From positions 987 to 64,986 of the forward strand of contig CALBSD010000097.1 of assembly GCA_937927625.1 (NCBI GenBank): DNA of 64,000 bases, given 5' to 3'. A program made the position numbers and the translations under genes. Of this stretch, positions 11,234-64,000 are shown one piece after another; position 1 is the first letter of the stretch; each line of letters begins with the position of its first letter. The stretch is from an uncultured Actinomycetes bacterium. GTDB taxonomy: Bacteria > Actinomycetota > Acidimicrobiia > Acidimicrobiales > Ilumatobacteraceae. The notes beneath the pieces were generated by a model. That model was not told the DNA's origin. It ran no database searches and saw only the letters and a list, made by a program, of their open reading frames with translations.

Positions 11234-11334
11234 ATATGCAGTGTAGAGGCGCCATATTTACCAAGTGGCAACCCTTTAATCCCCCAACTGACTACCGTGA
11301 CTACGTGAGTTCTGCCCCATCACCTGCAACATTG

Positions 11335-12632: not shown

Positions 12633-12636
12633 CGGA

Positions 12637-19668: not shown

Positions 19669-20145
19669 TTAGGAAATTTTTCCTTCGTCTCGGCGTCGTG
19701 TCAGCACTGTGGCGGCCTTCCAGGCACCCCAACTAATCCCTGCATCATGGACATCATCGGAAAGGTCTCGCCAGGTCAGTGGTCCAAATGCGTAGGTGTC
19801 GTGAGGCATCACTTGAGCGTCAAATGCGTCTCGATGCGGAACGGGCACTTCAGCCGTCATTAACGCTTGGTTTGCAAAGACATTTGCTTCTCGGATGACC
19901 TGCAACGGGTTGAAGCGCTGCTTGTCGACATCTGTAGCGAGAAGTGCCAGCAAGTCACCGGAAACCTGCTCCAGTGTTTGCGTAATGACTTCTTCAATTG
20001 CGCTCATGAGATCGGCGCCAGCATTCACGCCGCCATGCGAAGAGATCTCCAGCATCCGACGGCTGACCCACGAAGGCACCGCAGCAATGACGGCGTCGTA
20101 CAAATCTTGTGGGTACGTGTCCAAATCATTTCGAGACACATTCAT
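19669..20145 (-). CDS. Hypothetical protein
   Basis: Uninterrupted ORF. ATG 20145 (MNVSRNDLDTYPQDLY) avoids overlap with the divergent sulfatase gene. No recognisable motif. Confidence 0.5.
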   Translation of the reverse strand: MNVSRNDLDTYPQDLYDAVIAAVPSWVSRRMLEISSHGGVNAGADLMSAIEEVITQTLEQVSGDLLALLATDVDKQRFNPLQVIREANVFANQALMTAEVPVPHRDAFDAQVMPHDTYAFGPLTWRDLSDDVHDAGISWGAWKAATVLTRRRDEGKIS

Positions 20146-20237
20146 ACCGACCAACTTACCGACCGATAGAACGCACTCGATTATTCCCACGATTACGGGA
20201 CGAAAGTACACTCAAAGAGCAACGCACGGAGGCCTCG

Positions 20238-22496
20238 ATGACGTTTACACCCACCACGCCTGCTGGATTCCCTGGCACTATTGGCAAGACAATCGCAGAG
20301 TCGACTCCGTACTTCCCCGATCACAATCCAGGTGCGGGCAAGCCCAACATTCTCATTGTGTTGCTTGATGACGTCGGCTTTGCCGACTTCGGTTGCTACG
20401 GCGCCGAGAACAACACTCCGACCATTGACGCAATCGCACAACGTGGCTTGCGCTTCTCTGGTTTCCACACCACAGCAATGTGCTCCACAACTCGCGCAGC
20501 ACTTCTCACTGGTCGTAACCACCACTCGGTGGGCGTTGGATGTCTCGCCAACTTTGACAGTGGCTATCCCGGTTACCGCGGCAAGATCACGCACGAAGCC
20601 GGAACATTGGCAGAGATGCTGCGCCCTCACGGGTACCGCAATTACATGGTGGGTAAATGGCATGTCACGCCACTCACCGAGACTGGCCCCACAGGTCCAT
20701 TTGATGGATGGCCACTCGCACGTGGGTTTGATCGTTTCTACGGTTTCCTCGATGCGGAAACAGACCAGTACAGCCCCGAAGTTGTACGCGATAACACACA
20801 CGTCACTGCACCAGGCACGTACTGGACTGGGTATCACCTCACCGAAGACCTCATCGACAATGCAATTACGTACGTTGCCGATCACACGGCAGGAGCACCT
20901 GATGCTCCGTGGATGATGCTTCTTGCACCCGGTGCTTGTCACGCGCCGCACCAAGCACCCGTTGAATACATCGACCGTTGCGAAAAGAATTATCTCGATG
21001 GTTGGGATGCAGCGCGCGAGCGTCGCCTCGCAAATCAGATCAAGTTAGGCATTGTTCCACCTGACACAGAATTGCCACCGCGCAATGAATGGGTCCTTCC
21101 ATGGGAGGACGTACCAGTGGAACAAAAGCCGCTGTCCGTTCGCCTCATGGCTGCATACGCAGCAATGCTCGAACACTTTGATGACCACCTTGCACGCCTC
21201 GTCAAGCAACTTGAAGATTCAGGGCAACTCGATAACACCGTCATCATGGTGATGAGCGATAACGGCGCAAGCCAGGAAGGTGGACCATTCGGTTTCGTCA
21301 ATGCAATGGGCCCTTTCAACCTCATTGCTGAAAGCATCGAAGACAAGATCGCAAAGATTGATGACATCGGTGGACCCGATACGCACAGCAACTTCCCTTG
21401 GGGTTGGGCGATGACGGCCAACACTCCGTTGAAGCGTTATAAGCAGAACACGCACTCTGGCGGCATCCGTGATCCATTCCTTCTTGCTTGGCCCGGAGTT
21501 GTGAAAGACGAAGGTGGCGTGCGCCATAACTTCTGCCATGCAGTTGACCTTGCGCCCACAATTCTTGAAATGTTGGGTCTTGAAGCACCGACAACAATCA
21601 ATGGCATTTCACAGATGCCTATTGAAGGTCAGTCATTCGCATCTGTGCTGAGTGACCCCACCGCAACCATCAAGCGCGGACCGCAATATTTCGAAATGTT
21701 CGGACACCGCGGCATTGTCGTTGATGGTTGGAAAGCAGTGGCGTATCACCAGATGGGCACAGCGTTTGAAGACGATGTGTGGGAGCTGTATCACCTCGCT
21801 GAAGACTTCAATGAGTGCAACGACCTCGCGGCGAAAGAGCCTGAACGACTTGCTGCATTAATTGAACTGTGGTGGCAGGAAGCCGACAAGAACAAAGTTC
21901 TTCCACTTGACGATCGCTTCGCGCCTCGATTTGCAGAGAACGCCGAACGTCATCGCGGAAACCGTTCGCGCTACACCTTCTGGAAAGGCATGGGCCACAT
22001 TCCATCCGACGTCGCACCGGATTTGCGCAGTCGTTCGTACACCATCTCGGCATACATCGATGTTCCTGCAGAAGGCTGCGAGGGTGTCCTCATTTCTCAC
22101 GGTGACTTAACCAGTGGATACAGCCTCTTCATCCGCGACGGTTATCTCGAACATGACCTCAACATTGGTGGCAGCCATCAGATGTTGAAGTCAGATCGAA
22201 AGATCACTCCCGGTGCTCACATCGTTGGTGTTCGCATGAAGCGCAATGGCAATGAGGGAACACTCACGATGTTCATCGATGATGTTGAAGTGGGCACCAT
22301 GACCACCGAAAACATCTTCTGGCTCTTGATCTCATGGTCAGGACTTGACATTGGCCTTGACCGAGGAACGCCTGTGAGCCACTACAACTCACCATTCGTT
22401 TTCACGGGGGACCTCTTCAAAGTGGAAATCAACTTGGACGACGACCAAGTTCTTGACTTCCATGGCGCAAGCCGCGCCACCATGGCACGCGACTAA
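20238..22496 (+). CDS. Arylsulfatase (type I sulfatase with long C-terminal beta-sandwich extension)
   Basis: ATG 20238 is preceded by GGAGG at 6-nt spacing. NILIVLLDDVGFADFGCYG, active-site segment MCSTTRAALLTGRNHH, and MVMSDNG. Length is about 750 aa, as in actinobacterial AtsA-type enzymes. Confidence 0.85.
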   Translation: MTFTPTTPAGFPGTIGKTIAESTPYFPDHNPGAGKPNILIVLLDDVGFADFGCYGAENNTPTIDAIAQRGLRFSGFHTTAMCSTTRAALLTGRNHHSVGVGCLANFDSGYPGYRGKITHEAGTLAEMLRPHGYRNYMVGKWHVTPLTETGPTGPFDGWPLARGFDRFYGFLDAETDQYSPEVVRDNTHVTAPGTYWTGYHLTEDLIDNAITYVADHTAGAPDAPWMMLLAPGACHAPHQAPVEYIDRCEKNYLDGWDAARERRLANQIKLGIVPPDTELPPRNEWVLPWEDVPVEQKPLSVRLMAAYAAMLEHFDDHLARLVKQLEDSGQLDNTVIMVMSDNGASQEGGPFGFVNAMGPFNLIAESIEDKIAKIDDIGGPDTHSNFPWGWAMTANTPLKRYKQNTHSGGIRDPFLLAWPGVVKDEGGVRHNFCHAVDLAPTILEMLGLEAPTTINGISQMPIEGQSFASVLSDPTATIKRGPQYFEMFGHRGIVVDGWKAVAYHQMGTAFEDDVWELYHLAEDFNECNDLAAKEPERLAALIELWWQEADKNKVLPLDDRFAPRFAENAERHRGNRSRYTFWKGMGHIPSDVAPDLRSRSYTISAYIDVPAEGCEGVLISHGDLTSGYSLFIRDGYLEHDLNIGGSHQMLKSDRKITPGAHIVGVRMKRNGNEGTLTMFIDDVEVGTMTTENIFWLLISWSGLDIGLDRGTPVSHYNSPFVFTGDLFKVEINLDDDQVLDFHGASRATMARD

Positions 22497-49167: not shown

Positions 49168-49353
49168 ATGAACCCCCTATCGACATTCTGCCACCTCTAG
49201 AAAGCAGCTCGGGACAACTGTGCGAACAGATGTACCCATTCCCTGGAATACATCACCCAGGTACCAAAGGTCATTTATTTCGAATGTTGTGAATTGCACA
49301 CTCCCTAGTACCAAGAGTCGCTTGTCGTGGCGCTCTTCGAGCAAGGAGTTCCC

Positions 49354-52059
49354 ATGCATAACACCGGACAACCACTGCACACTCGATTTCACAAGTCGGC
49401 TGCGTACTTTGCATCAGCAATTCTTCTCGCAGCAGTTCTCATTATGCGAGTGAACGAATCTACGACTAAAGCAATTGCGCTGAGTACAGGCATCATCAGT
49501 GCCAAAGTCAGTGATCATGTGGGCGTCGACAGTGTTGGTCATCCCGATGGCACGGGAACGTCGAATTGTGTTCGGTATCAGCCGACTTCAAGCGCAACAT
49601 CATCTGGATGGGTGACATCCACAAGTTCTCCGAATGAAGCGCAAACCGCGCACGGGCAATCAGGCTCTTCATGTCCATCATCTCTCGATATCAGTCAACA
49701 AAGTGCCGTCGGTATACGGCCTGCAGGGGCGGCAACTTTCACCAGTGGCACTCCCTTTCTTCTCGCCCGTGCAATTCACTACAACAATCCCATTCGTGGA
49801 GCAGCTGAATACTGGAATGGAAAGTTCACAATCCAGATGGCTGGCTTTGATGGTTCACCCCAAGTAGGGCTCAATTGGTGGATGTGGGAAACACCTAATA
49901 ATGCAAATCCTTGCGCCGGTGGCTCCGATTCCAATGGATGCTTTGATGAAATCAAATTCACGTCACAAATTGGTGATCAAATTGTGACGCAATCTGGTTA
50001 CGACTATCGCCTAGTTATTACAGGTTTCGTACCGGTCAGTTCATCTACGACATGTCCAAGCACTCCGAGTGGCGCAACGATTAATGACTTCTGGACACAT
50101 GAAGGCGCCACCACCCATGCATGCCTCTATGCAGCGTTATCTCAAGTCCGCAAGGTAGTCATCACAAAATCCATTGTGGGAAATGGAAACGGAGTTGATG
50201 CCCCTTCCGCACAATTTGATTTCACGACAACTGGAAACATTTCGGGCTCACCGTGGACAAACGGCTCATTCACACTTACTCCACCAACAAACGGCAATGC
50301 ATCAACTACAGCAAAGGAGATTGTTTCTACTGACACCATCTCTGTCACTGAAACATCTCCACCCAATAGCAATTGGTCACTAACAAACATTGCATGTACT
50401 GATTACGCCGCTAACGGCAATCCAAGGCCTTTGCCAAGTGGCGCTACCTATAACACGGCTACTCGTCGTCTGGAACTGACGCAAATTCCTGCACCACCGG
50501 ATGTCACACATCCAAACATCACATGCGTGTTCCAAAATACATACACACCACATGCGACGCTTACATTGGTCAAGCATGTAACTGGCGGAAATGCAGCAAT
50601 CTCCGATTTCACGTTGACAGCTACTGGCGCAGATGTTGCACCAACTGCCGACCACACCATCTCCGGAACAAGCGGCCATCAAAATGTCACGTCTCGAAGT
50701 GTCCCCGCAGGCGCATACACACTCAGTGAAAATGGCCCTTCTGGATATGTCTCAAATCAAGGATGGTCTTGCCCTGGCGCCTCGATTGTTGACAATGTGG
50801 TGACCTTGGTTGATGGCGCAAATATCACATGCACCATCACAAATCGATTTCAATCCGGCAGCCTTCGCATCAATGTAGTGATTTCAGCTCCACCAGGATC
50901 TGTCACGGCTCCGGGTCGAAACTTCACCGGCACCTACACATGCGGGGCAGATCCTGTTGCACCATTCACCGCGACAGAGTCGTCACCATTTGGTGCGGCA
51001 AATCTTCCCTCGGGAACTTCCTGCTCGGTCGTTGCAACACAACCGACAGGGGACCTTGCTAACGCATCATTTGCGTGGGCAACACCCACATATTCGACAC
51101 AACCTGTCGTCATCGGTGACGAGACCGAGTCAACGATCACTGTGACCTATCGCGTGATTCAGCGCTTCGGTTCATTCAGCGTGACGAAATCAATCTCTGA
51201 CCAGAGTGGATATACCGGTGCAGCAGGACGAATCTTCCCGATCAACTACTCCTGCCGTATTGGTGAAGACGTTGTAGCAAACGGAACACTCAACGCAATC
51301 GCCGGAGTGGCCATCTCTCCAGAGGAACAAATTCCGGCAACTGCAACATGCCAGCTTGCTGAAACTCTGAACCTTTTGGAAGGAGATTTTGTGGACAGTT
51401 CTTACGAATGGAACACACCACTCTTCAGCGATGCAACGCCGGTGATACCTGCTGATCAAGTTCTCAATATCAGCGTGACCAATCGATTTAACCGAATCTT
51501 TGGATCCTTGCTCATAAGCAAAACTCTGTCTGGCTCTACAATTGGTTTTGTAGAAGGTACAAAGTTCAACTTCACAGTCTCCTGTGGTGAGGTGTTTAAC
51601 ACGACAGTCATTGCAGGAATTGGTGAACCAGCGACAACAGCAAACATCCCGCGCGGCACCCAATGCACTGTGGCTGAAGTGGCACCAACAGGCGGCCTCA
51701 GCACTACTGAGTATTCGTGGGGTCCGACCCCTTCCCCTCAGGGCGTGACAGTGGAGCGGTTGAACCAACCAGTGGTCTTCAACAACAGCATCACCTTTGT
51801 GGCAAGCACAACCACTTCCACCACCCTGCCTGCGACAACGACTACCGTTCCCGCGACAACGACCACAGTTCCAGGCACGACAACCACCGTCGCACCAACC
51901 ACAACAACGACCATTCCTACCGAGTTAGATGTTCTTGTTCCCGATGAATTACAAGTACTCCCCGCAACTGGTCATACATCGAATGGTGCCCTATTCGCAG
52001 GAATTCTGATGATTCTTATCGGAGGAATCTTTATCCTTCGCAAGAGGATCGTTCGATAA
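49354..52059 (+). CDS. LPXTG-anchored surface protein: unknown N-terminal domain, prealbumin-like (SpaA-type) domain, three DUF5979-like domains, Thr/Pro stalk
   Basis: ATG 49354 is preceded by AGGAG at 5-nt spacing. Signal-peptide-like N-terminus (KSAAYFASAILLAAVLIM). Three GS(L/F)x(I/V)xK...C...C...W...(T)NRF units. (TTTTVP)n linker. C-terminus LPATG plus a hydrophobic helix plus RKRIVR. Confidence 0.85.
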   Translation: MHNTGQPLHTRFHKSAAYFASAILLAAVLIMRVNESTTKAIALSTGIISAKVSDHVGVDSVGHPDGTGTSNCVRYQPTSSATSSGWVTSTSSPNEAQTAHGQSGSSCPSSLDISQQSAVGIRPAGAATFTSGTPFLLARAIHYNNPIRGAAEYWNGKFTIQMAGFDGSPQVGLNWWMWETPNNANPCAGGSDSNGCFDEIKFTSQIGDQIVTQSGYDYRLVITGFVPVSSSTTCPSTPSGATINDFWTHEGATTHACLYAALSQVRKVVITKSIVGNGNGVDAPSAQFDFTTTGNISGSPWTNGSFTLTPPTNGNASTTAKEIVSTDTISVTETSPPNSNWSLTNIACTDYAANGNPRPLPSGATYNTATRRLELTQIPAPPDVTHPNITCVFQNTYTPHATLTLVKHVTGGNAAISDFTLTATGADVAPTADHTISGTSGHQNVTSRSVPAGAYTLSENGPSGYVSNQGWSCPGASIVDNVVTLVDGANITCTITNRFQSGSLRINVVISAPPGSVTAPGRNFTGTYTCGADPVAPFTATESSPFGAANLPSGTSCSVVATQPTGDLANASFAWATPTYSTQPVVIGDETESTITVTYRVIQRFGSFSVTKSISDQSGYTGAAGRIFPINYSCRIGEDVVANGTLNAIAGVAISPEEQIPATATCQLAETLNLLEGDFVDSSYEWNTPLFSDATPVIPADQVLNISVTNRFNRIFGSLLISKTLSGSTIGFVEGTKFNFTVSCGEVFNTTVIAGIGEPATTANIPRGTQCTVAEVAPTGGLSTTEYSWGPTPSPQGVTVERLNQPVVFNNSITFVASTTTSTTLPATTTTVPATTTTVPGTTTTVAPTTTTTIPTELDVLVPDELQVLPATGHTSNGALFAGILMILIGGIFILRKRIVR
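51958..51972 (+). other. Sortase recognition motif LPATG of the 901-aa surface protein
   Basis: The codons ctc ccc gca act ggt are in frame with ATG 49354, followed by HTSNGALFAGILMILIGGIFIL and RKRIVR. Confidence 0.85.
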
Positions 52060-52062: not shown

Positions 52063-55000
52063 CTAGGCGCGACGCTGTACCAGGCGCTTACTGCGATTCA
52101 CCGCAACGCCGATGCCAATCATCATGAGCGCTGCAAGTAGCAGTGGCTCGGTGTTGTTGGCACCTGTCATGGGCAACTGTGGCTTTGCAGGGATGATCGG
52201 AGTGAGCTTTGACTGCACTGTTTGACCAGCAACGTCTGTCACTTGGTAGGTGATGGACAAGCCCTTACCGGTCTTCGCATTGCGGCTGGCGGTGAAGGTC
52301 ACAACACCTGTTGTCTTGTTCAACTTGAAACGTCCAAGATGAGGAACAACCACAATGCCATCGGCATCACACACTGATACATCAGCTGCGACAACCGGAG
52401 CCGGATCAATCAAACAGGTCACGGACTTATTGAGACCGAGCTTTGAAGTAGCCAGGCCTTGATTGCCAGTGATGGTGGTGAACTGTACGGTCTCGCCACG
52501 ATTCACTTCAAGAGTCTGTGGCTTTGCAACTGGCATCGACGGTGGTGGTGCAACGACAACGGTGATGGTTGCCATGGCAACTTGACCAGCGCCATCTGCA
52601 ACGGAGTACTTAATGGCTGTTGCATTCCCCCAGAAGGTTGGAAGCGGCACGAAACGAACGCTGCCATTGGCCTGAACGAGATAAGTGCCTTCACCAGGAA
52701 CAGTCAGTGATGTGAGAGAACATGACGACGGAACAGTTGTTGAGGCATCGCACAACTTGAGAGTGTTGCCAATGAGGGAGGTACCAGTTCCGGCAACATC
52801 ATTCGTGAGAGGACTGATTGTTTGCGCAGTATTCCATGGACCCGTTGATGTGTCATTCACAATCGTTGGCATTGGAGGAATGACTGGCGTCAGAGTCGAT
52901 GCCACTGTCTGACCGAAGATGTCAGTGATCTGATACGTAACTGAGGTGCGATGGCCAATCGGGGCATTAGCCAGCGAGGTGTAGGACACCACCCCGGTGA
53001 GTACATCGATTCTGTATGTTCCTTCGCCAGCGATGGTCACATCGGTGACGCCACACACGTTTGTAGATGGGTCGACGATGCAGAAGCTAGTTGGGTTGAG
53101 GGCAGCTCCGCCCGCAGCAGAAGCAGCAAGTGCTCCAGAGCCCACGATGGGCAAGAAGGTTACGGTTGACGCAGGAGCAAGCGCACGAAGATCAGGCGTC
53201 GCCACTGGAGGTGGCGGCATTGACACTGTTGGTGTGATGGTTGCACTGGCAACGCGACCATTGATGTCTGCCACCACATATTTCACAGGCGATGCTGTAC
53301 CCACAAAAGTTGGCAACGGATCAAATGTCACAGTGCCATTTGCATTCACTGTGTAGGTGCCCTCATTTGACACCGTCAATGTCGTGAGGTTGCACGATGC
53401 ATTAGCAGTTGAAGTTGTTGCACACAGCTTCACACTGCTTGGCACCAAGGTTGCAGGAGCAACTGCAGAGTCATTTGTCAGTGGCGAGATCACCTGATTC
53501 GTATCAAATGGCCCTGTGTTGGTGTCATTGACGGCTGTTGGAGGCGCAGGGATGATCGGCGTGAGGGTCGAAATAGCTGTCTGGCCAAAGATGTCGGTGA
53601 CTCGGTACGACAGTGGCGTCTTAGTTCCAGCCGCAGCATTGCCGTCCGCAACGAATGTGACTACACCTGTCGATGAGTTCAGGGTGTACGTGCCTTCACC
53701 AGCGATTGTGACAACACCATCAGCATCGCAATTGGTTGTACCAGGCGTCAGGAGACATGTTGCTGAGGTATTGAATCCAACCGTCGAAGTTGCGAGACCA
53801 CTTGCACCAGTCAAAGTCGTGAAGTTCACGGTTCCACCTGGAATCACTGTCTTCGTTTGTGGTGTTGCAACTGGGACGGGAGGTAATCCAACTGTAGGCG
53901 TGATGGTGGCATTTGCCAGCTGACCAGTGCTGTCAGCAACGATGTACTTCACCGGTGATGCAGTACCCGTAAATGTTGGTAATGGATCAAAGGTGACCGT
54001 GCCATTTGCATTCACTGTGTAGGTGCCTTGGCCAGCAACGGTCAACGTTGTGAGGTTGCAGGAGGCATTTGCAGTAGAGGTGGACGCGCATAACTTCACG
54101 CTGCTTGCAATCAACGTTGCTGGATTTGCAGCAGAGTCATTGGGCAGAATCGAGATTGTTTGATTCGTGTCAAATGCGCCGCTGGAGGTGTCATTTGTTG
54201 CAACCGGAGGTGCAGGAATAATCGGAGTAAGGGTTGCAGTATCAGTCTGCCCAAAGACATCTGTTACTTGATACGTCAATGCAGTCTTTGTGCCTTGCGT
54301 GGCATTCACATCGGCCACAAATGTGACAACACCAGTTGCTGTATTCAGCGTGTATGTGCCTTCACCAGCAATCGTGACAACACCATCTGCATCACACGTA
54401 GAAGTTCCTGGCGTGATCAGACACGTGGCAGAGGTGTTGAACCCCACTGTCGATGTTGCCAGTCCACTGACGCCAGTCAAAGTTGTGAAGTTCACGCTGC
54501 CTCCAGGAATCACAGCCTTCGTCTGTGGATTCGCAAATGGGGCCGCTGGCATCAACACTGTTGGGGTAATGAGGGCATTTGTGATCTGACCAGTGGAGTC
54601 AGAAACGATGTACTTCACCGGTGATGCGGTACCAGTAAACGTTGGAAGAGGATTGAACGTCACTGTGCCATCTGAGTTGACCGTGTACGTACCTTCGTTT
54701 GGAACTGTCAGTGTCGTGAGGTTGCAGCTTGCGTTCGCTGTCGAGGTCGTTGCACACAACTTCACCGAGCTTGCAACCAACGTGGCAGGGGAAGTAACAG
54801 AATCATTCGCGAGAATCGAAATGACCTGATTTGTGTCGTACGGACCAGTGGACGTGTCATCTGTAGCGGCTGGTGGTACTGGGATGATCGGCGTCAACGT
54901 TGAAGTTGCAGTCTGACCAGTGATATCCGTGACGACATACGTAATCGGAGTCTTCGTACCAGATGTCGCATTCGCATCGGCTACGTAGGTGACAACACCC

Positions 55001-58000
55001 GTTGATGGGTTGAGTGTGTACGTGCCTTCACCAGGAATAGTGATGACTCCATCAGCATCACAAGTAGTGGTGTTGGGTGTGTAGAGGCATGTTGCTGCTG
55101 TATTGAATCCAACGCTTGACGTTGCAAGTCCACTAGCACCAGTAAGTGTCGTGAAAGTCGCAGTTGCGCCAGGGATGACAGCCTTTGACTGCGGAGTCGC
55201 AGTTGGTGCTGCAGGTGCTGACACCGTCGGCGTAATCGTGGCATTCGTGATCTGACCAGTGCTGTCAGCCACGATGTACTTCACCGGCGATGCAGTGCCA
55301 GTGAACGTTGACAATGGATCGAATGTGACGGTGCCGTTCGCATTGACCGTATACGTACCCTGGTTTGCAACCGTCAGCGTTGTGAGATTGCAACTTGCAT
55401 TTACTGTTGAAGTTGTGGCGCATAACTTGACCGTGCTTGCAATCAACGTCGCAGGCGAGGTCGCAGAGTCGTTTGTCAAAATCGAAATGACCTGATTTGT
55501 GTCATAGGCGCCAGTAGACGTATCGTTTGCGCCAACAGGAGGAGCCGGGATAACCGGCGTCAATGTAGACGTTGCTGTCTGGCCGAAGGTGTCGGTCACA
55601 CGGTATGAAAGTGGTGTCTTTGTTCCTTGTGTCGCATTGATATCGGCAACAAAAGTGACAACACCAGTTGAAGTGTTCAGCGTGTACGTGCCTTCACCTG
55701 CGATTGTCACTACCCCATCAGCATCACAGGTAGTGGTGCTAGGTGTGAGAAGACATGTCGAAGCATTCACGAGCCCGACGCCTGAAGTTGCAAGACCACC
55801 TGTTCCCGTCAAGGTTGTAAATGTGGCGGTTCCACCAGGGATGACAGCTTTCGACTCTGGCGTTGCAACTGGTGCAGCAGGCATCGAGACAGTCGGTGTG
55901 ATGGTGGCGCCGGTGAATTGACCAGTGGAATCTTGCACTGCGTACTTCACAGGTGAAGCAGTACCAGTGAATGTTGGAAGAGGATCAAATGTGACTGTGC
56001 CGTTCGGGTTGACCGTATATGTGCCCTGGTTTGCAATTGTCAATGTTGTGAGGTTGCAGCTTGTGCTAGCCGTAGCAGTCGTTGCACACAACTTCACGGT
56101 GCTCGCATTCAATGTCGCAGGAGAAGTAACTGAGTCATTGGTCAAGATTGAGATGGTTTGATTCGTGTCATATGCGCCAGTTGAAGTGTCATTCGTTGCA
56201 ACTGGTGGTGCTGGAATGACTGGCGTCAGAGTTGACGTCGCTGTCTGACCAGTGATGTCCGTGACGCGATATGTCAATGGTGTCTTAGTACCTGCAGTGG
56301 CATTGACATCCGCAACGAAGGTGACGACACCAGTAGTTGGGTTCAATGTGTAGGTGCCTTCACCTGCGATTGTCACTACCCCATCAGCATCACAGGTAGT
56401 GGTGCTCGGTGTGAGAAGACACGTCGAAGTATTTACGAGTCCGACACCTGAAGTGGCAAGTGCACCCGTACCGGTCAGTGTGGTGAACGTCGCAGTAGCA
56501 CCAGGGATGACAGCCTTCGTTTCTGGGGTCGCTACTGGAGCGGCAGGCGGGGTGACAGTCGGGGTCAGGGTCGCGGAGGTGAGCTGAGTAGTGCTGTCGG
56601 CAACGACATACTTCACAGGTGATGCTGTGCCCTTGAATGTTGGCAACGGATCAAATGTGATTGTTCCGTTTGCATTGACCGTGTAGGTGCCTTCGTTCGG
56701 AACCGTCAAGGTTGTGAGATTGCAGCTTGTGTTTGCTGTACCGGTCGTTGCGCACAATTTCACTGTGGTCGCATTCAACGTTGCGCCTGCACCTGGGTTG
56801 TCGTTTGTCAGAACGGAGATTGTCTGATTTGTGTCGTAGGCTCCTGTCGAAGTGTCGTTCGCTGCGACAGGAGCCAACGAAAGAATTGGTGTCAGTGTCG
56901 ATGTTGCTGTTTGACCGAAGGTGTCTGTGACCTTGTATGTAATTGCTGTCTTTGTTCCCGATGTTGCATTTGCATCGGCCACATACGTCACGACTCCGGT
57001 CGATTGGTTCAAGGTGTACGTACCTTCACCAGCAATCGTGACAACTCCGTCTGCATCACATGTAGTGGTGTTTGGCGTGTAGAGACACGTCACTGTCGTA
57101 TTAAAGCCAACACCTGAGGTTGCGAGTCCATTTGTCCCCGTCAAAGTGGTGAATGTTGCAGTTCCACCAGCAATCAGTGTTTTCTGGTCTGGTGTTGCAG
57201 TTGGTGCAGCAGGCATCGCCACTGTTGGGGTAATCGTTGCTCCTGTTAGTTGACCATTGCTATCCGCCACCACATACTTCACAGGCGAAGCTGTTCCCGT
57301 AAAGGTTGACAACGGATCAAAGGTCACTGTTCCATTCGCATTGACCGTGTAGGTGCCCTGGTTGGCCACTGTCAACGTTGTGAGATTACAACTGGCGTTC
57401 GCAGTTGCAGTTGTTGCACACAACTTCACCGAACTACCAACCAGCGTGGCAGGTGATGTCACGGTGTCGTTCGACAAAATAGTGATGGTTTGATTCGTGT
57501 CATACGCACCACTGGAAGTGTCGTTCGTTGCTACAGGTGCAGGCGGAATCAAGGGTGTCAACGTTGAAGTTGTGGATTGACCGGTTGCGTCAACGACCTT
57601 GTACGTAATTGCAGTCTTTGTACCAACTGTGGCAGCAGGGTCTGCGACGTATGTGACAACGCCAGTCGACTGATTTAACGTGTACGTACCTTGACCAGCG
57701 ATAGTCACGATGCCATCAGCATCACAAGTAGTAGTGCTTGGGGTGTAAAGACACGTTGCCATCGTGTTGAAACCAGCAGTCGCAGTGGCAAGGCCACCAG
57801 TGCCTGTCACTGTCGTAAACGTTGCAGTTCCGCCAGGAATCACAGTCTTTGTCTCAGGTGTTGCAACAGGAACAGGAGGCGCCGTCACAGTAGGCGTGAT
57901 ATTCGCACCAGCAAGCTGGCCGGTGGAATCTGCCACCACATACTTCACTGGGGTTGCGGTCCCCTTAAATGATGGCAGCGGATCAAACGACACCGTGCCA

Positions 58001-61000
58001 TCAGCATTGACCGTGTACGTACCCTCATTCGCAACCGTCAACGTTGTGAGATTACAAGAAGCATTCGCAGTCGCAGTCGTTGCGCACAACTTCACAGAAC
58101 TTGCAACCAATGTTGCACCAGTGCCCGGCGTGTCATTGGCTGTCACAGAAATGGTCTGCACTGTGTCCCATGCGCCAGTCGAAGTGTTCGCCGTTGCACT
58201 TGGCGCAGGAGGCACAATCGGAGTCAACGTTGACGTAACCGACTGACCAAAGATGTCCACAACCTTGTACGTAATTGCAGTCTTTGTTCCAGGGGTCGCC
58301 GTGGAAAGAGCCACGTAAGTGACGATGCCTGTCGTTGAATCAAGCGTGTATGTGCCTTGACCAGCGACGGTCACGATGCCATCGGCATCACAGGTACTTG
58401 TGCCAGGTGTATAGAGACACGTTGCCACGGTGTTGAAACCAGGTCCCGAAGTTGCGAGTCCGCCGGTCCCAGTCGTCGTCGTAAATGTCGCAGTTCCGCC
58501 AGGAATCACTTGCTTCGTTTCTGGAGAAGCAACAGGGATTGGGGGAAGTGAAACCGTGGGAGTAATCGTTGCTCCAGCGATCTGACCATTGGAGTCTGTG
58601 ACTGCGTACTTCACCGCAGATGCAGTGCCAGAGAAGGTAGGCAACGGATCAAACGTGACCGTGCCGTTGGCATTGACTGTGTAAGTTCCCTGGTTCGCAA
58701 CTGTCAATGTTGTGAGATTGCAACTTGCATTAGCGGTGGAAGTAGTTGCGCACAGCTTCACGCTGGAGGCAACAAGAGTTGCTGGCGCTGTGGCCGAATC
58801 ATTAGTGAGAATTGTGATGGTCTGGTTGGTATCCCATGCACCTGTTGATGTGTCGTTGACTGCCACGGGAGCAGGAGGGATTGTTGGCGTCAATGTTGAC
58901 GTAGCAGTTTGTCCAAAAGTGTCAGTCACACGGTACGTAATCGCTGTCTTGGTGCCGGCAGTCGCTGCAGGATCTGCAACGTAGGTGACAATGCCAGTAG
59001 AAGCATTCAGCGTGTACGTGCCTTGACCGGCAATCGTGACAATTCCGTCAGCGTCACATGTTGCTGGCGATGACGCTGGTGTGATCAGACATGTCGAAGC
59101 CGCAACAAGTCCAACACCTGAAGTGGCAAGACCACCTGTGCCAGTAATGGTGGTGAACGTTGCGGTTCCACCGGGGATGACAAGTTTGGTTTCCGGAGTT
59201 GCCACAGGAGCCGCAGGCATTGCAACGGTCGGAGTAATCGTTGCGCTCGTCACTTGAGTGGTGGAATCAGCAACGATGTACTTCACTGGAGATGCGTTTC
59301 CTGTGAATGTTGACAGTGGGTCGAACGTGACAGTGCCATTGGCATTCACTGTGTACGTACCCTCATTGGCAACTGTCAACGTTGTGAGATTGCAACTTGC
59401 ATTCGCGGTAGCGGTGGTCGCACACAACTTCACGCTCGTTGCATCGAGAGTTGCACCAGCCCCAGCAGCGTCGTTGGTCAATGGAGAAATCGTCTGATTC
59501 GTGTCATACGCACCAGAGGACGTGTCATTCGTGGCAGTCGGTGCGGGCGAGACAATCGGAGTCAATGTTGAAGTTGCAGTTTGTCCGGTGATGTCCGTGA
59601 CCTGATAGGTCAATGCGGTCTTGGTACCGGGCGTGATATTCGAGACTGAAACAAAAGTGACAACTCCTGTTGAAGTATTCAACGTGTAAGTGCCTTCGTT
59701 GGCAATCGTGACAACACCGTCGGAATCACAAGTAGCCGGGACTGAACCAGGAGTAATAAGACATGTTGATGCTGTATTAAATCCTGCAGCCGAAGTTGCT
59801 AGGCCATTCGTTCCAGTCAATGTGGTGAACGTTGCGGTCGCACCGGGAATCAATGTCTTCGTTTGTGCCGTAGCTACAGGGGCAGACGGTGCAACCACCG
59901 TTGGCGTAATGGTTGCGGAAGTGGCCTGCTGAATTCCATCCTGCACCACATATTGAATTGGCGTTGCAGTTCCACGGAAAGTTGGCAACGGGTCAAATGT
60001 GACAACGCCGTTCGCGTTGACGGTGTACGTGCCCTCATTCGGAATTGTCAGCGTTGTCCCTGTGCAAGATGCAATAACTGTTCCCGTTGTACAGATACGG
60101 ACTGTGCTTGGGTCAATTGGCGAGAGTGTTCCAGAAATATCATTCGTCAAAGGCGAAATGATTTGGTTCGTGTCATATGAACCGCTTGAAGTGTCATTGA
60201 TCGCAACCGGCGAAGTTGTTGTTACAGATGGCGTATACGTACTCGTTCCAATGTTTCCATTCACATCGGCAACTTGGTAACTCAACGGTGTTGCAGTTCC
60301 CGTAAAAGTACTCAGCGGAGTAAACGTGACAACACCCGTATTGCTGACGGTGTAGGTGCCTTGATTCGGGACTACAACGGATCCGCCGGGCCCCACGGTG
60401 CAGTTTGGCGCCACTTGATTTGTTGCCGGATTACACAACTTGACGGATGCAGGGTCCAATGCCACGGTCGTGCCGGCCGCATTCATCGCATTCGTATCGT
60501 TGGTAACGACATTGATGGATTGTGGTGTGTTGACAGGACCGACTGTCGCATCAGGGAATGCAGTTGGCTTGGGAGTGCTATGGCACATTGCGCCATCCGT
60601 TGGAACTGTTGGAACCTGGTACATCAAGGTAAATGCCGAACTTGCTGACGCAGTTGCTGGTGTCGATGTGCGGAAATACTGACGGTACCCATCAGTCACA
60701 ATGACTTCACCAAAACCATCTGCGTAGATCGCGCCACCCGCTGCATAGTTCGAAGGCATGATTGACCGAGATGTAGATACCCATGAATAGTCAGGCGCTG
60801 CATCCTGGGTCGCCATGTACAAAGCAGAACCAGATGATGAATAGATCTTGCCGGCCGAATACGCAAGGTCATCTCCTGTCATTGCAACGCTGACTGTCAC
60901 CGTTGTTGCGACTCGACTCGAGAGATTGATGGAGTACAAGGTCGTAGTCGAGCCAGTCTTTTTGACAATCAGATTTCCCGTCGCATCAACGTCGCCACCC

Positions 61001-64000
61001 TTTATCGCTGTCATGTCTGCGACTGTGACACCAGAAATGGCACCGAGGTCAGTCGGCGTTCCATTGCTTCCAATTCGAATGAGATCGCCAGCCGTCAGTC
61101 CATCCCCGCCTGTTGTTGCGATGCCATACAGATATCCATCTGATTGATTGAAGCCAATCGCGTCAATCACTGCAGTTGTCAATTTCGGACCAATCTCATA
61201 TGACAATGCTGGGTTCTGAGTTGGACTGAGGCGATACAGCTGGCCGCCTGTGTAGTGGTACATGTAGGCATTGCAGACAAAAGAGCCAGCATTTGCTGGC
61301 GTCGTCGCAACGAGCACATCTTGCGTGTTCTTGGTGAATCCTGTTGTCACCACATTGCCCGCACCATTTGTGTACGTACCCGCAGCTGTAGCAACAACAG
61401 CGACGCTGTATTCACATGTGGCAACACCCGCTGTCATTGACGCACCGGTAACGGTCACAGAGTTCGTCATTGTTGACATTGCTGCTGGATCAATGGTCGG
61501 GTTGTAGCCAGCGCGAACCCCGTCAGGGCACGTCGTCATCAAGTTGTTATTTGCTGCAACTTCAAGACCAGACGGGAGCGTGTCGACAAACCCCAAGCCA
61601 GTCTTTGCAGTATTACCCGGAGCATTCGTGAATGTAAATGTCAACGTGGCCACTTCACCCACAGCAACAGTTGCTGGAACGAATTTCTTTGTCAATGTCG
61701 GCATCACGGTGTATTCACCATCAATGACACCAGTTGTACCTATTGCGATAGTGCTGACTTTTGAAAGAAGAGATGTGATTGCCGTCGTTGTTTCAGTAGT
61801 AGTTCTGTTTGCGAGTGTCGCGGTATTTCCAGCGGTCACAACGGTTTTTGTAACTGCTGCCGTTGATACGTCATTGAACTTCACTGTGTAATCACCAGGT
61901 GAAAGATTGGGGAACGAATATGTTCCGTTTGCCCCAGTGACAGTCGTAATTGGCTGACCACGCATTGAAGAGTTTCCATACGTATCGGGATACGTCAATG
62001 GATTACCTGCGGAGTCACACAAGGTCACAGTCGCACCTGAAATTGCATTGGATGCAGTGTCTCTTGCTGTGCCCGACAAACTCGTTGAACACAACAACGG
62101 ATCAGCTGCACCAATGTTCACTGTTGCCGTTGCTCGGGTCAACGGAGTGACAGTCGAACCATCAGTTGCGCTTCCGTCTGCAGTCACTGTTGTTGTCGTT
62201 GCATTGAACTGCGAGCCAGTGAAGGTTGGTCCGGCAGGACAAAGAATTGCAGTGGGACGCAAGCAAAGTTGAGGGGCACCACCAACAGCAGTAATGCGAG
62301 CTCCTACTTCACCATTGAGTGTTCGGCCAGTAAAAGACACCGTGAATGAAGGGTTTTGTCCAGAGTCTCCGATCGCCAGTGATGATAAATCAACTGTGTT
62401 ATTCCCCGGAATCGAGATATTTGTCCATCCGGTAATGGCAGATCCTGCAGCAGTCTTCACTGTCAATGTTGCGGTTGTAAACGGAGTAGTCGTGTTAAGA
62501 ACAAACGAACGCCACCCTTGAATTGCATCAGCTGATGAACACGCCATTCGGGGCACAAGTAGCCCTGCCTCAAAAACGACTGTTGGTGGCGGTACTGCAC
62601 AGTTACCTGCCGCACCTGTGTAAGCGTCATAGGTCTGAATGATTCCGTCGTTAGAGTTTGACCAGATGCAATATGCATTCGTTGGGTCAATTCTCAATTG
62701 ATAGTTGGTATCGGGAATTCCAGTAGCTGCCCAGTTCTTACACCAAGTATCTGTTGCAAAGTCCCAGCAATAAATCTTTCCTTGACCAACTGCCCAGTTG
62801 CCATCTCCCCAATACATTCGGGTTCCCGACGTATCCCAGTTCTGCGTGTACGCGTCATAACTAGCGACATAGGTTGCGATGTACTTCGTCGTGAAGTTTG
62901 TTGTCAATGAACTTGAGATATCAGTTCCGGCGGCATTGAAACATTGGAAGAAGCCACCATTTGCGCCAGCACCCAATGCAGAGAAGCATGCACCTGCAAC
63001 TCCACCTTGCGCAGTCGGGAGTTTTGACCAGTGAACTGCGGCTTTAGTAATAGTGCGAGGGTTCGACCAACCAGTACAAGCGTTTCCAGTCATCGCATCA
63101 ATGCACACTGCCTTTGTTGCGACACCAGCGCTCGCGTAAATACGACCGCCCCATTCACCCACTGTTGGACGCCAACGGTAAACACCTGATTTTGCAGTGA
63201 GAAGGTTCGCGCCAAAATCAATGATACCGCCGGTGCTACATGGAGCACCCGCACCACTATTCAAACGAATATCGACACAAACGAGGTCACCTGTATTGAC
63301 TGCCCACGTGAAAAGTCGACCGTTGTACTGCGCAAAACCACCGCTGCAGTCATAGATCTGACCGGACTGCCCACAGGCATAACCTGAGGAAGGAACATTG
63401 GTCGAAGATCCACCCGATACGAACGAGGAATCTGCAGTTCCACCGCACCACTTATTCGTGAGCGAGATGTCTCCCGCCTTGATGCAACCGAATCCAACTT
63501 GATTGACTCCGTTATACGTGTAAACCGTTGGAAACCAAATCTCATCATCAACAGTGTCAAACCAACCCGTTGATTGCTCGTTTGAGTGCATGTTGAACAG
63601 TGGTGCTGTTGTCAGAGATTCAATTTTGAATGGCCACGAAGGTCCACACGTTTCACCGGTACGTAAATGGCAGTCAATACTTTGATTACTTGAGCCCACA
63701 TTCGATCCGCCTGAACCGTTGTGGTGCCAGATGTTGAAGATGTGACCCGCATCATCAAAGAACACGTCCCAACCATCTCCACTGGATCCGGTCGTTGTTG
63801 GAAATTGACCTGTGGTGGGTTGGGCTGCATTTGCATCGGTTGATGCAATTTGTCGTCCAATGTTGTCTGCACCTTGGCTGACGAGTTGACCTCTTGCCTT
63901 CACTTTGATGATTGCGTTCCAGCCAGCAGTAGTGGTGGGCGCAGTTGTAGTCCACGTTGTTCCATCAGTTGAATACGAAATTGTCCAACCAGCTGGAGCA
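52063..64000 (-). CDS. Giant LPXTG-anchored mosaic adhesin-like surface protein (5'-partial; more than 3,978 codons in the window)
   Basis: The frame is open from the stop at 52063-52065 to the window edge. I checked codons 63904-63999 by hand and found no stop. The GTG 63903 in the track is only the first start-like codon. C-terminus LPMTG plus a TM helix plus RSKRLVQRRA. Contains 25 tandem Ig-like modules and several adhesin-type domains (see findings). Confidence 0.9.
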   Translation of the reverse strand, partial: APAGWTISYSTDGTTWTTTAPTTTAGWNAIIKVKARGQLVSQGADNIGRQIASTDANAAQPTTGQFPTTTGSSGDGWDVFFDDAGHIFNIWHHNGSGGSNVGSSNQSIDCHLRTGETCGPSWPFKIESLTTAPLFNMHSNEQSTGWFDTVDDEIWFPTVYTYNGVNQVGFGCIKAGDISLTNKWCGGTADSSFVSGGSSTNVPSSGYACGQSGQIYDCSGGFAQYNGRLFTWAVNTGDLVCVDIRLNSGAGAPCSTGGIIDFGANLLTAKSGVYRWRPTVGEWGGRIYASAGVATKAVCIDAMTGNACTGWSNPRTITKAAVHWSKLPTAQGGVAGACFSALGAGANGGFFQCFNAAGTDISSSLTTNFTTKYIATYVASYDAYTQNWDTSGTRMYWGDGNWAVGQGKIYCWDFATDTWCKNWAATGIPDTNYQLRIDPTNAYCIWSNSNDGIIQTYDAYTGAAGNCAVPPPTVVFEAGLLVPRMACSSADAIQGWRSFVLNTTTPFTTATLTVKTAAGSAITGWTNISIPGNNTVDLSSLAIGDSGQNPSFTVSFTGRTLNGEVGARITAVGGAPQLCLRPTAILCPAGPTFTGSQFNATTTTVTADGSATDGSTVTPLTRATATVNIGAADPLLCSTSLSGTARDTASNAISGATVTLCDSAGNPLTYPDTYGNSSMRGQPITTVTGANGTYSFPNLSPGDYTVKFNDVSTAAVTKTVVTAGNTATLANRTTTETTTAITSLLSKVSTIAIGTTGVIDGEYTVMPTLTKKFVPATVAVGEVATLTFTFTNAPGNTAKTGLGFVDTLPSGLEVAANNNLMTTCPDGVRAGYNPTIDPAAMSTMTNSVTVTGASMTAGVATCEYSVAVVATAAGTYTNGAGNVVTTGFTKNTQDVLVATTPANAGSFVCNAYMYHYTGGQLYRLSPTQNPALSYEIGPKLTTAVIDAIGFNQSDGYLYGIATTGGDGLTAGDLIRIGSNGTPTDLGAISGVTVADMTAIKGGDVDATGNLIVKKTGSTTTLYSINLSSRVATTVTVSVAMTGDDLAYSAGKIYSSSGSALYMATQDAAPDYSWVSTSRSIMPSNYAAGGAIYADGFGEVIVTDGYRQYFRTSTPATASASSAFTLMYQVPTVPTDGAMCHSTPKPTAFPDATVGPVNTPQSINVVTNDTNAMNAAGTTVALDPASVKLCNPATNQVAPNCTVGPGGSVVVPNQGTYTVSNTGVVTFTPLSTFTGTATPLSYQVADVNGNIGTSTYTPSVTTTSPVAINDTSSGSYDTNQIISPLTNDISGTLSPIDPSTVRICTTGTVIASCTGTTLTIPNEGTYTVNANGVVTFDPLPTFRGTATPIQYVVQDGIQQATSATITPTVVAPSAPVATAQTKTLIPGATATFTTLTGTNGLATSAAGFNTASTCLITPGSVPATCDSDGVVTIANEGTYTLNTSTGVVTFVSVSNITPGTKTALTYQVTDITGQTATSTLTPIVSPAPTATNDTSSGAYDTNQTISPLTNDAAGAGATLDATSVKLCATTATANASCNLTTLTVANEGTYTVNANGTVTFDPLSTFTGNASPVKYIVADSTTQVTSATITPTVAMPAAPVATPETKLVIPGGTATFTTITGTGGLATSGVGLVAASTCLITPASSPATCDADGIVTIAGQGTYTLNASTGIVTYVADPAATAGTKTAITYRVTDTFGQTATSTLTPTIPPAPVAVNDTSTGAWDTNQTITILTNDSATAPATLVASSVKLCATTSTANASCNLTTLTVANQGTYTVNANGTVTFDPLPTFSGTASAVKYAVTDSNGQIAGATITPTVSLPPIPVASPETKQVIPGGTATFTTTTGTGGLATSGPGFNTVATCLYTPGTSTCDADGIVTVAGQGTYTLDSTTGIVTYVALSTATPGTKTAITYKVVDIFGQSVTSTLTPIVPPAPSATANTSTGAWDTVQTISVTANDTPGTGATLVASSVKLCATTATANASCNLTTLTVANEGTYTVNADGTVSFDPLPSFKGTATPVKYVVADSTGQLAGANITPTVTAPPVPVATPETKTVIPGGTATFTTVTGTGGLATATAGFNTMATCLYTPSTTTCDADGIVTIAGQGTYTLNQSTGVVTYVADPAATVGTKTAITYKVVDATGQSTTSTLTPLIPPAPVATNDTSSGAYDTNQTITILSNDTVTSPATLVGSSVKLCATTATANASCNLTTLTVANQGTYTVNANGTVTFDPLSTFTGTASPVKYVVADSNGQLTGATITPTVAMPAAPTATPDQKTLIAGGTATFTTLTGTNGLATSGVGFNTTVTCLYTPNTTTCDADGVVTIAGEGTYTLNQSTGVVTYVADANATSGTKTAITYKVTDTFGQTATSTLTPILSLAPVAANDTSTGAYDTNQTISVLTNDNPGAGATLNATTVKLCATTGTANTSCNLTTLTVPNEGTYTVNANGTITFDPLPTFKGTASPVKYVVADSTTQLTSATLTPTVTPPAAPVATPETKAVIPGATATFTTLTGTGALATSGVGLVNTSTCLLTPSTTTCDADGVVTIAGEGTYTLNPTTGVVTFVADVNATAGTKTPLTYRVTDITGQTATSTLTPVIPAPPVATNDTSTGAYDTNQTISILTNDSVTSPATLNASTVKLCATTATASTSCNLTTLTIANQGTYTVNPNGTVTFDPLPTFTGTASPVKYAVQDSTGQFTGATITPTVSMPAAPVATPESKAVIPGGTATFTTLTGTGGLATSGVGLVNASTCLLTPSTTTCDADGVVTIAGEGTYTLNTSTGVVTFVADINATQGTKTPLSYRVTDTFGQTATSTLTPVIPAPPVGANDTSTGAYDTNQVISILTNDSATSPATLIASTVKLCATTSTVNASCNLTTLTVANQGTYTVNANGTVTFDPLSTFTGTASPVKYIVADSTGQITNATITPTVSAPAAPTATPQSKAVIPGATATFTTLTGASGLATSSVGFNTAATCLYTPNTTTCDADGVITIPGEGTYTLNPSTGVVTYVADANATSGTKTPITYVVTDITGQTATSTLTPIIPVPPAATDDTSTGPYDTNQVISILANDSVTSPATLVASSVKLCATTSTANASCNLTTLTVPNEGTYTVNSDGTVTFNPLPTFTGTASPVKYIVSDSTGQITNALITPTVLMPAAPFANPQTKAVIPGGSVNFTTLTGVSGLATSTVGFNTSATCLITPGTSTCDADGVVTIAGEGTYTLNTATGVVTFVADVNATQGTKTALTYQVTDVFGQTDTATLTPIIPAPPVATNDTSSGAFDTNQTISILPNDSAANPATLIASSVKLCASTSTANASCNLTTLTVAGQGTYTVNANGTVTFDPLPTFTGTASPVKYIVADSTGQLANATITPTVGLPPVPVATPQTKTVIPGGTVNFTTLTGASGLATSTVGFNTSATCLLTPGTTNCDADGVVTIAGEGTYTLNSSTGVVTFVADGNAAAGTKTPLSYRVTDIFGQTAISTLTPIIPAPPTAVNDTNTGPFDTNQVISPLTNDSAVAPATLVPSSVKLCATTSTANASCNLTTLTVSNEGTYTVNANGTVTFDPLPTFVGTASPVKYVVADINGRVASATITPTVSMPPPPVATPDLRALAPASTVTFLPIVGSGALAASAAGGAALNPTSFCIVDPSTNVCGVTDVTIAGEGTYRIDVLTGVVSYTSLANAPIGHRTSVTYQITDIFGQTVASTLTPVIPPMPTIVNDTSTGPWNTAQTISPLTNDVAGTGTSLIGNTLKLCDASTTVPSSCSLTSLTVPGEGTYLVQANGSVRFVPLPTFWGNATAIKYSVADGAGQVAMATITVVVAPPPSMPVAKPQTLEVNRGETVQFTTITGNQGLATSKLGLNKSVTCLIDPAPVVAADVSVCDADGIVVVPHLGRFKLNKTTGVVTFTASRNAKTGKGLSITYQVTDVAGQTVQSKLTPIIPAKPQLPMTGANNTEPLLLAALMMIGIGVAVNRSKRLVQRRA
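52162..52176 (-). other. Sortase recognition motif LPMTG of the giant protein
   Basis: The reverse complement of acc tgt cat ggg caa reads ttg ccc atg aca ggt, followed by ANNTEPLLLAALMMIGIGVAV and NRSKRLVQRRA. Confidence 0.85.
52180..60560 (-). repeat. Intragenic tandem array: 25 modules of about 111 aa (about 333 bp) of two alternating types, 666-bp di-module period
   Basis: Module boundaries were read from the translation (order A-A-(B-A)x11-B). The DNA periodicity shows in by-product antisense ORFs starting at 54593, 55259 and 55925. Array boundaries are approximate to about 30 nt. Confidence 0.85.

Follow-up and report, generated by a model that had tools for sequence, protein, structure and literature searches.

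Stalks built from CshA-like or SdrD_B-like domains are usual for Actinobacteria (PMC10952558), and fibrillar adhesins usually display an N-terminal adhesive domain and a C-terminal sortase motif (PMC8286594). CshA from Streptococcus gordonii, for example, is a single chain that carries a non-repeat N-terminus, CshA-type stalk modules of ~100 amino acids (aa) and an LPXTG anchor, and in which NR2 is invariably partnered with GEVED (PMC10952558). It is also listed among the Periscope proteins, which are characterised by highly identical DNA repeats and by length variation between strains (PMC8201768). The present work addresses a giant gene located at one end of a stretch of 64,000 nucleotides (nt) of contig CALBSD010000097.1 from an uncultured member of the Ilumatobacteraceae (this whole stretch is hereafter called the window). 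The gene probably encodes a single-chain, sortase-anchored fibrillar adhesin, acidic, of ~4,075 aa and ~410 kDa, whose distal head is a candidate ligand-binding tip. Although considerable, this size is by no means unusual among surface proteins (compare bioRxiv 10.1101/2023.11.21.568195). The initial annotation of the window had proposed a giant sortase-anchored mosaic surface protein with an undescribed combination of domains. The core of this proposal stands, but novelty is limited to the head: the general plan, like the stalk and the anchor, is already known, whereas the head belongs to a new family, unclassified, well delimited and displaying one predicted disulfide per blade.

The visible part of the gene (52063..63999, minus strand) comprises 3,978 sense codons and a stop at 52063-52065, i.e. 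11,937 of the 64,000 nt of the window (18.7%, close to the 19% initially estimated). Its translation does not reveal any internal stop. As stops represent ~3/64 codons, a frame of this length is not attributable to chance. The list of open reading frames (ORFs) begins the gene at GTG 63903 for the sole reason that the frame extends to the edge of the window without meeting a stop. The 32 codons 5' of this GTG encode APAGWTISYSTDGTTW..., in which P2, G4 and W5 are conserved at 92-100% among 150 family members (residues of the protein are numbered from the window edge throughout). Alignment with 14 relatives, retrieved by a word-indexed search with aa 1-640, places the first residue of the window ~90-115 residues into the protein. 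Furthermore, two orthologues at 81% identity, L041 and P0001, carry 97 further residues ahead of this position, opening with a signal peptide (MRLLSW(L/F)RFKPRIIFVPFLVIGM..PPASA, then LDN). The L041 protein begins with MRLLSWLRFKPRIIFVPFLVIGMLASNIEVPPASA|LDN, exactly 97 residues before the first residue of the window, and stop codons precede its start. Therefore, the true N-terminus of the giant protein would lie ~290 nt past the window edge, in line with the initial proposal that the frame runs off the window, and the full gene is predicted to contain ~4,075 codons, of which ~97, including those of the Sec signal peptide, lie outside. The visible fragment has a mass of 400 kDa, an isoelectric point (pI) of 4.4 and 20% Thr. 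The G+C content of the gene is 51.8%, versus 52.6% for the window, and the GC-skew switches strongly across the gene, which fits a Thr-rich (20%) protein encoded by the minus strand.

The C-terminus of the protein corresponds to a cell-wall sorting signal (52066..52176, minus strand) that displays the three parts expected from a sortase substrate: an LPMTG motif (52162-52176), a hydrophobic segment and a basic tail, NRSKRLVQRRA. As read from the sequence, LPMTG is followed by ANNT-EPLLLAALMMIGIGVAV and then by the basic tail, the full stretch between motif and tail being ANNTEPLLLAALMMIGIGVAV. The TIGR01167 profile recognizes this anchor with 17.2 bits for a cut-off of 15.9, so that the textbook sorting signal initially described is borne out. 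Sortase genes are found beside short members of the head family. Indeed, at locus L012, from a metagenome-assembled genome (MAG) of Micrococcales, a gene matching Pfam Sortase with an E-value (E) of 2e-29 (8839-9489) lies directly upstream of a gene (9710-13318) encoding a 1,202-aa protein with the architecture head-SdrD_B-CshA x3-LAYTG. In L013 (~9384) and L025 (~9405), a sortase motif is placed as in L012, upstream of a short head-family gene whose product ends with LAYTG. The sortases of these three loci carry the motif TLTTC, and a gene encoding a response regulator/sigma-70 region 4 protein precedes each of the sortase genes.

The stalk (aa 1149-3936; 52192..60555, minus strand) represents 70% of the giant protein. 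An 800-aa sample matches PF19076 (CshA_repeat, E 1.7e-76) in Pfam and TIGR04225 (E 1.9e-88) in NCBIfam, and the solved CshA repeat 6szc is matched weakly (E 1.3e-3). As proposed in the initial annotation, the stalk contains 25 CshA-type modules: the count of EGTY-type module cores is exactly 25, with a spacing of 109-118 aa and a period of ~111 aa. Module 1 is unique, modules 2-25 strictly alternate between two types, A and B, and every module has two Cys. Arrays alternating dissimilar adjacent modules are thought to prevent misfolding between neighbouring domains. By analogy with CshA, the length of the stalk is presumed to be roughly 90 nm.

Modules of the same type share a mean protein identity of 65-70% (maximum 88%) and a mean DNA identity of 65-66% (maximum 80%), versus ~34% and ~54%, respectively, for A compared with B, i.e. 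for adjacent modules. The longest exact DNA repeat within the gene is 53 nt, and Tandem Repeats Finder (TRF) does not report any array in it, since the A+B period of 666 nt exceeds the limit of this program and the units are too diverged. Between modules of the same type, the proportion of non-synonymous differences (pN) is 0.15-0.22 and that of synonymous differences (pS) 0.67-0.69, i.e. near saturation, giving pN/pS ratios of 0.22-0.33. Diverged DNA, near-saturated pS and low pN indicate that the stalk repeats are old, coding and under purifying selection, and the giant ORF is a real gene under selection. Divergence is greatest in the three modules proximal to the wall (23-25) and in the first two. 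For modules 1 and 2, orthologues occupy the corresponding positions in L041. In the interior of the array, modules share 78-88% protein identity with their own paralogues, versus 69-81% with any module of L041. This pattern suggests that turnover or homogenisation occurred in the array in the past: either the interior modules were anciently homogenised, or selection maintains the resemblance at the protein level in spite of the divergence of the DNA.

Three domains separate this stalk from the head, in the order initially proposed for the mosaic, which holds along the whole protein in Pfam, NCBIfam, AlphaFold and Foldseek analyses. The first of them, an SdrD_B/CarboxypepD_reg-like domain of prealbumin fold (aa 640-743; 61771..62082, minus strand), corresponds to the unit initially described as SdrD/Cna-B-like. 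CarboxypepD_reg passes its cut-off over this region (E 2.8e-9, 37.6 bits for a cut-off of 32.3), SdrD_B itself scores just below its own (E 3.7e-6, 27.5 bits for 29.7) and SpaA gives an E-value of 2.5e-4. In a search of PDB sequences with aa 591-1149, only this part found a match, the B-domain of Uro-adherence factor A (UafA; 3irp), which was reached at E 6e-5 by the family profile spanning the SdrD_B-like region. The second domain (aa 767-893; 61321..61701, minus strand) is a beta-sandwich of the DUF7933 family (PF25564, E 1.1e-20). It had initially been considered as a DUF11-type unit at 61330-61700, an assignment that has to be amended: DUF7933 is the best match, BatD 'DUF11-like' reaches only E 0.028 and TIGR01451 is not matched. 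The association with DUF11 is indirect, as PF25564 is found together with DUF11 (PF01345) in relatives named 'TIGR01451 family'. The third domain, as initially proposed, is a DUF6923 repeat region (aa 919-1130; 60610..61245, minus strand; PF21959, E 9.7e-23, profile positions 11-220 of 234). A literature search retrieved nothing specific about DUF6923.

By contrast, the first 590 residues match no sequence family of Pfam or NCBIfam and no PDB sequence, the Pfam and NCBIfam searches being blank over aa 1-640. The same holds for the family as a whole: at E<=5, no Pfam family matches any of 12 heads, most of which have a complete N-terminus. Nevertheless, these residues define a large family. An exhaustive profile search among 1.84 billion cluster representatives, clustered at 50% identity, retrieves 1,019 head-family representatives at E<=1e-3 and 508 at E<=1e-30; the ~1,000 representatives found by this exhaustive hidden Markov model (HMM) search contrast with the 14-21 relatives yielded by the word-indexed search.

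An AlphaFold2 model of the head based on 65 sequences (predicted local distance difference test score, pLDDT, 85.6; predicted template modelling score, pTM, 0.78; a 15-sequence model reached only a pLDDT of 73) is all-beta and comprises three parts. The first (aa 1-62; 63814..63999, minus strand) is the C-terminal half of an N-terminal beta-sandwich with the motif AP-x-GW...Y..DG. The model places strands at residues 6-10, 32-36, 41-44 and 50-58 of this sandwich remainder (aa 1-60), and the first half of the sandwich lies outside the window. The discoidin/F5-8 type C tail initially suspected at 63904-64000 is not retained: no F5_F8_type_C profile match was obtained at E<=5, neither with the fragment nor with the 12 heads, and the residues concerned form the last part of the sandwich proper to the family. 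The second part (aa 74-468; 62596..63780, minus strand), initially described as a propeller-like region rich in Cys and Trp, is modelled as a seven-bladed beta-propeller. It carries one conserved Cys pair per blade (110-118, 172-185, 241-254, 299-308, 338-353, 411-420 and 444-467) and a recurring blade motif, (V/I)-x-C-x-D...G..C-x-G-W. Among 150 members of the family, the polar residues G74-D75-G76, N89, H92, H93, D413, Y433 and D438 are invariant, and W446 is likewise conserved. The third part (aa 470-588; 62236..62592, minus strand) is a beta-sandwich that is Ig-like, as initially proposed; its strands are modelled at residues 473-573 with a pLDDT around 90, in a fold extending over residues 470-585. 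It is closed by an eighth pair, Cys487-Cys579, each residue of which is 97% conserved in the same 150 members.

When compared with the PDB by Foldseek, both head models match only generic propellers, with template modelling (TM) scores of 0.2-0.58 and identities of at most 12%. The best geometric matches are seven-bladed: BtuG2 (target-normalised TM 0.58), YncE (0.55) and WD40 proteins. The best E-values correspond to the GH43 arabinanase 8ic1, the sialidase 2ber, the PL42 lyase 7esl and the tetrathionate hydrolase 6l8a, with poor TM-scores. At the level of the predicted structure, the fold class can be regarded as settled, namely a seven-bladed propeller.

The head family also informs on the way in which such proteins are built and anchored. 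Most matches lie at positions ~10-650 of proteins whose length is 640-3,400 aa; internal matches are in the minority. The head is usually N-terminal in surface proteins of freshwater Actinomycetota and Myxococcota, and the anchors are interchangeable. Among the C-terminal ends of 169 head-family proteins, 34 are LPXTG/LAXTG signals, 18 are OmpA-like NRRV tails, ~11 are Cys-hydrophobic-Arg tails, from Myxococcota such as Archangium and Cystobacter, and 16 end with (V/F/A)TG. The head thus appears to be common to different phyla that use different anchoring systems. In L024, L028-L034, L038 and L040 (Archangium, Cystobacter, Myxococcaceae), the protein ends with G-C-(S/T)...hydrophobic...RRRR, tails that look like MYXO-CTERM on the basis of their sequence, and the Myxococcota locus L028 carries a head-family ORF of more than 4,030 codons that does not include any CshA module. 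A scan of genome contigs with the head retrieved 45 loci, several of which come from lake MAGs of Ilumatobacteraceae and Acidimicrobiaceae.

The ends of the (V/F/A)TG type differ from the other tails: in 16 of the 169 proteins (including P0006, P0008, P0087, P0088, P0097, P0100 and P0102), (P/A/G)(V/F/A)TG is directly followed by the stop and comes after a DUF11-like last domain, with neither hydrophobic segment nor basic tail. In L010 (5829-5866), a perfect hairpin, CCGTCACGGG-CTAGT-CCCGTGACGG, has one of its arms made up of the PVTG codons and the stop. Similar ends are found in L014 (LPATR), L016 (LPVTK) and L017 (LPTTR). This recurrent tail could be an element acting at the DNA level, such as a terminator, instead of a protein sorting signal, or both at once.

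The best relative of the window gene, L041, comes from a freshwater MAG (Kiruna3_bin-4227). Its head is 81-82% identical, its domain order and the distance from its head to its first CshA core are those of the window gene, and it has more than 4,085 codons and at least 25 modules. L009 is also a collinear orthologue (more than 4,075 codons, at least 23 modules). The module numbers, 25 in the window, at least 25 in L041 and at least 23 in L009, are lower bounds for the orthologues, as both run to the end of their locus. The identity with L041 is 82% for the head, 70% for DUF7933, 64% for the SdrD_B-like domain and 55% for DUF6923, the lowest value. In L041, a gene encoding a TetR regulator directly precedes the giant adhesin gene, and a HEPN/nucleotidyltransferase (AbiEi-like) pair and a gene of the 'animal haem peroxidase' family (559 aa) lie upstream (5267-6458, 7245-9603). 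The MAG Loclat_bin-05774 carries two paralogous head genes, L001 and L002, whose heads are 80% and 61% identical to that of the window. Each of the two genes enters CshA-type modules before its short contig ends, so that genomes of this kind may encode more than a single giant adhesin from this family.

Typical members of the head family are far shorter, with 0.9-1.2 kaa (thousand aa). Like the window protein, short members such as L012 9710-13318, P0011 and P0007 combine the head, an SdrD_B-like domain, CshA modules and LPXTG/LAXTG, but DUF7933 and DUF6923 are absent from them and the number of their stalk modules is only 0-3. Judging from these architectures, the window protein can be described as the plan of the short members stretched about four-fold, with DUF7933 and DUF6923 in addition.

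Comparison with the described systems shows which parts of this plan are shared. The window protein resembles CshA by its single chain, its LPXTG anchor, its non-repeat N-terminus and its stalk modules. However, NR1, NR2, NR3 and GEVED are not matched in a Pfam search of aa 1-1133, the head being an unrelated propeller, and the protein is therefore not a CshA orthologue despite its CshA-type stalk. It also differs from CshA, which has 17 modules, by its 25 modules, each with a Cys pair and belonging to two types that alternate, by the additional DUF6923, DUF7933 and SdrD_B-like domains, by the divergence of its DNA repeats and by its host, an environmental actinobacterium. Like the Periscope proteins SasG, Rib and Sgo_0707, it carries an N-terminal functional domain on a rod of tandem domains with a C-terminal wall anchor, and the A/B alternation of its modules recalls the G5/E alternation of SasG. 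Nevertheless, with a DNA identity between repeats that does not exceed 80% (65-66% on average for the same type), synonymous sites near saturation, no exact repeat longer than 53 nt and no TRF array, it does not qualify as a Periscope protein. With the Sdr/MSCRAMM adhesins (SdrD B repeats, UafA), it shares a prealbumin-fold B-type domain between head and stalk and an LPXTG anchor, but it has neither the N2-N3 IgG-like ligand-binding domains nor Ser-Asp repeats, and its single B-like domain is under the SdrD_B cut-off. Finally, the propeller is matched best in geometry (target-normalised TM 0.55-0.58) by binding proteins of the surface or the periplasm, namely BtuG from Bacteroides, YncE from Escherichia coli and Lp49 from Leptospira. 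The likeness is limited to the level of the fold: the head displays seven conserved intra-blade Cys pairs and two flanking sandwiches, shares at most 12% identity with them and gives no profile match.

These data lead to the following model of a fibrillar adhesin. A Sec signal peptide, as seen in the orthologues, would export the chain, and the LPMTG motif, the hydrophobic segment and the basic tail would hold it in the membrane. A housekeeping sortase, of the kind found beside the short family members, would then cut after the Thr and link the chain to peptidoglycan. The 25 CshA-type modules would form a long stalk projecting a distal block of ~1,230 aa (DUF6923, DUF7933, the SdrD_B-like domain and the ~690-aa head). 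The head would most likely act as the ligand-binding tip, a role suggested by its being the most conserved part of the protein, and its target would probably be a glycan or another polymer on particles or other cells. Among the features by which Monzon, Lafita and Bateman (PMC8286594) define fibrillar adhesins, the tandem-domain stalk and the surface anchor are found here, whereas the distal 590 aa do not match any Pfam or NCBIfam family and hence no recognised adhesive domain; the position and the modelled fold of the head suit a binding tip.

Several points weigh against this model. On the side of export and anchoring, the signal peptide is that of the orthologues P0001 and L041, as the N-terminus of this gene is beyond the window; PF00746 recognizes the anchor with 16.9 bits only, under its cut-off of 20; and no ORF of more than 150 aa in the 64-kb window contains the sortase motif TLxTC. 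On the side of the head, adhesive tips usually evolve fast, whereas the head is the slowest-evolving part of the protein in the comparison with L041. Moreover, the invariant H92-H93, D75, D413 and D438 also suit a metal or catalytic site, and the propellers matched by Foldseek include enzymes, so that the fold cannot separate binding from catalysis.

These last points bear on the main rival explanation, in which the head would be an enzyme, such as a hydrolase or lyase of glycans or a metal-dependent catalyst, held ~100 nm out by the wall stalk for the processing of polymers, and the protein would not be an adhesin. Besides the propeller enzymes that head the Foldseek E-value ranking (8ic1, 2ber, 7esl and 6l8a), the retention of D75, N89, H92, H93, D413, Y433 and D438 across the family is in favour of this explanation, as is the strong conservation of the head, which is expected of an active site. 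However, these enzymes are matched with low TM-scores and at most 12% identity and have five, six or eight blades, whereas the best geometric matches, BtuG2, YncE and WD40 proteins, are non-enzymatic seven-bladed binders or scaffolds. No enzyme family is matched at the sequence level in Pfam, NCBIfam or the PDB, and the conserved residues, located in blades 1, 6 and 7, could serve ring closure or calcium binding instead. Globally, a catalytic head appears rather unlikely, although it is a stronger candidate than the explanations considered below.

It is somewhat less probable still that the protein acts mainly as a passive coat or spacer, in which a dense brush of acidic, Thr-rich fibres would shield the cell from phages, grazers or aggregation, as has been proposed for Periscope proteins, the head being secondary. 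The composition of the protein (pI 4.4, 20% Thr) and the share taken by the stalk (70%) would agree with this. The host lineage is probably planktonic, in fresh water, where attachment is not an obvious necessity, and Periscope proteins are able to block interactions of other kinds at the surface (PMC8201768). However, the near-identical DNA repeats that define Periscope proteins and permit rapid changes in their length are absent (DNA identity of at most 80%, longest exact repeat of 53 nt, nothing found by TRF). Furthermore, a purely steric role leaves unexplained a constrained head of 690 aa that is common to proteins of 1 kaa with only two or three stalk modules.

An assembly artefact (collapsed or chimeric repeats) or a decaying pseudogene is very improbable. 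The 108,973-nt contig is metagenome-assembled and repeat arrays are prone to mis-assembly, but the repeats are too diverged (65-66% mean and 80% maximum DNA identity within a type, 53 nt for the longest exact repeat) for an assembler to be likely to have collapsed or invented the array. In addition, the 3,978 codons are free of stops, the pN/pS of 0.22-0.33 reflects purifying selection, and collinear orthologues with equal spacing from head to first module are found in two independent MAGs. Least credible of all, a sortase-polymerised pilus subunit or pilus tip, suggested by the LPXTG signal, by a convergent LPXTG-bearing neighbour with SpaA-type prealbumin domains and DUF5979 and by a weak match to TIGR04226 (RrgB D2, E 0.069), is disfavoured by the lack of a pilus-type sortase nearby and of any pilin family above threshold, by the housekeeping-type, single-gene appearance of the sortases beside the short family members and by the size of the chain, which with 4,000 aa and 25 stalk modules already constitutes the fibre on its own.

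The convergent neighbour of the giant gene (49327-52059, plus strand) encodes a second sortase substrate of 910 aa, with LPATG, a hydrophobic segment and RKRIVR. It contains SpaA_4, SpaA_2 and four DUF5979 domains, and its N-terminal ~280 aa are unannotated. The stop codons of the two genes are 3 nt apart, so that a terminator could not fit between them. A single terminator-like hairpin was detected (52351-52371, minus strand); it is located within the coding region of the giant gene, upstream of its stop, and shuffled sequence likewise yields one such match. The remainder of the window carries housekeeping genes, including those encoding UPF0182, DivIVA, GlnD, GroEL and IspD, among which is found a gene (20109-22496, plus strand) encoding a 795-aa sulfatase (Pfam Sulfatase and SGSH_C). 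This sulfatase could be of relevance should the host exploit sulfated polysaccharides from algae.

A new domain family could be seeded cleanly from the head, which has more than 500 diverse members, clear boundaries, diagnostic Cys pairs and a confident model. Surveys of fibrillar adhesins based on the adhesive domains already known would overlook the proteins that bear it. The host is probably a planktonic freshwater member of the Ilumatobacteraceae (acIV-type Acidimicrobiia), as judged from the names (Ilumatobacteraceae or freshwater metagenome) given to members of the 90%-identity clusters in which the proteins of the window fall; a literature search on the adhesins of Ilumatobacteraceae or acIV retrieved nothing specific. 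In such a lineage, ~12 kb are spent on one surface fibre with a strongly constrained tip, which suggests that attachment to, or capture of, a specific target matters for cells usually regarded as free-living. More speculatively, and with a rather low likelihood, the head, with its GDG...N..HH site, might be an unrecognised lectin or enzyme for polysaccharides of phytoplankton or particles, borne on stalks of adjustable length by the abundant 'free-living' freshwater Actinomycetota and also by Myxococcota. If this were true, planktonic acIV-type cells would possess a dedicated tool of ~100 nm with which to tether themselves to the surface of algae or to harvest from it.

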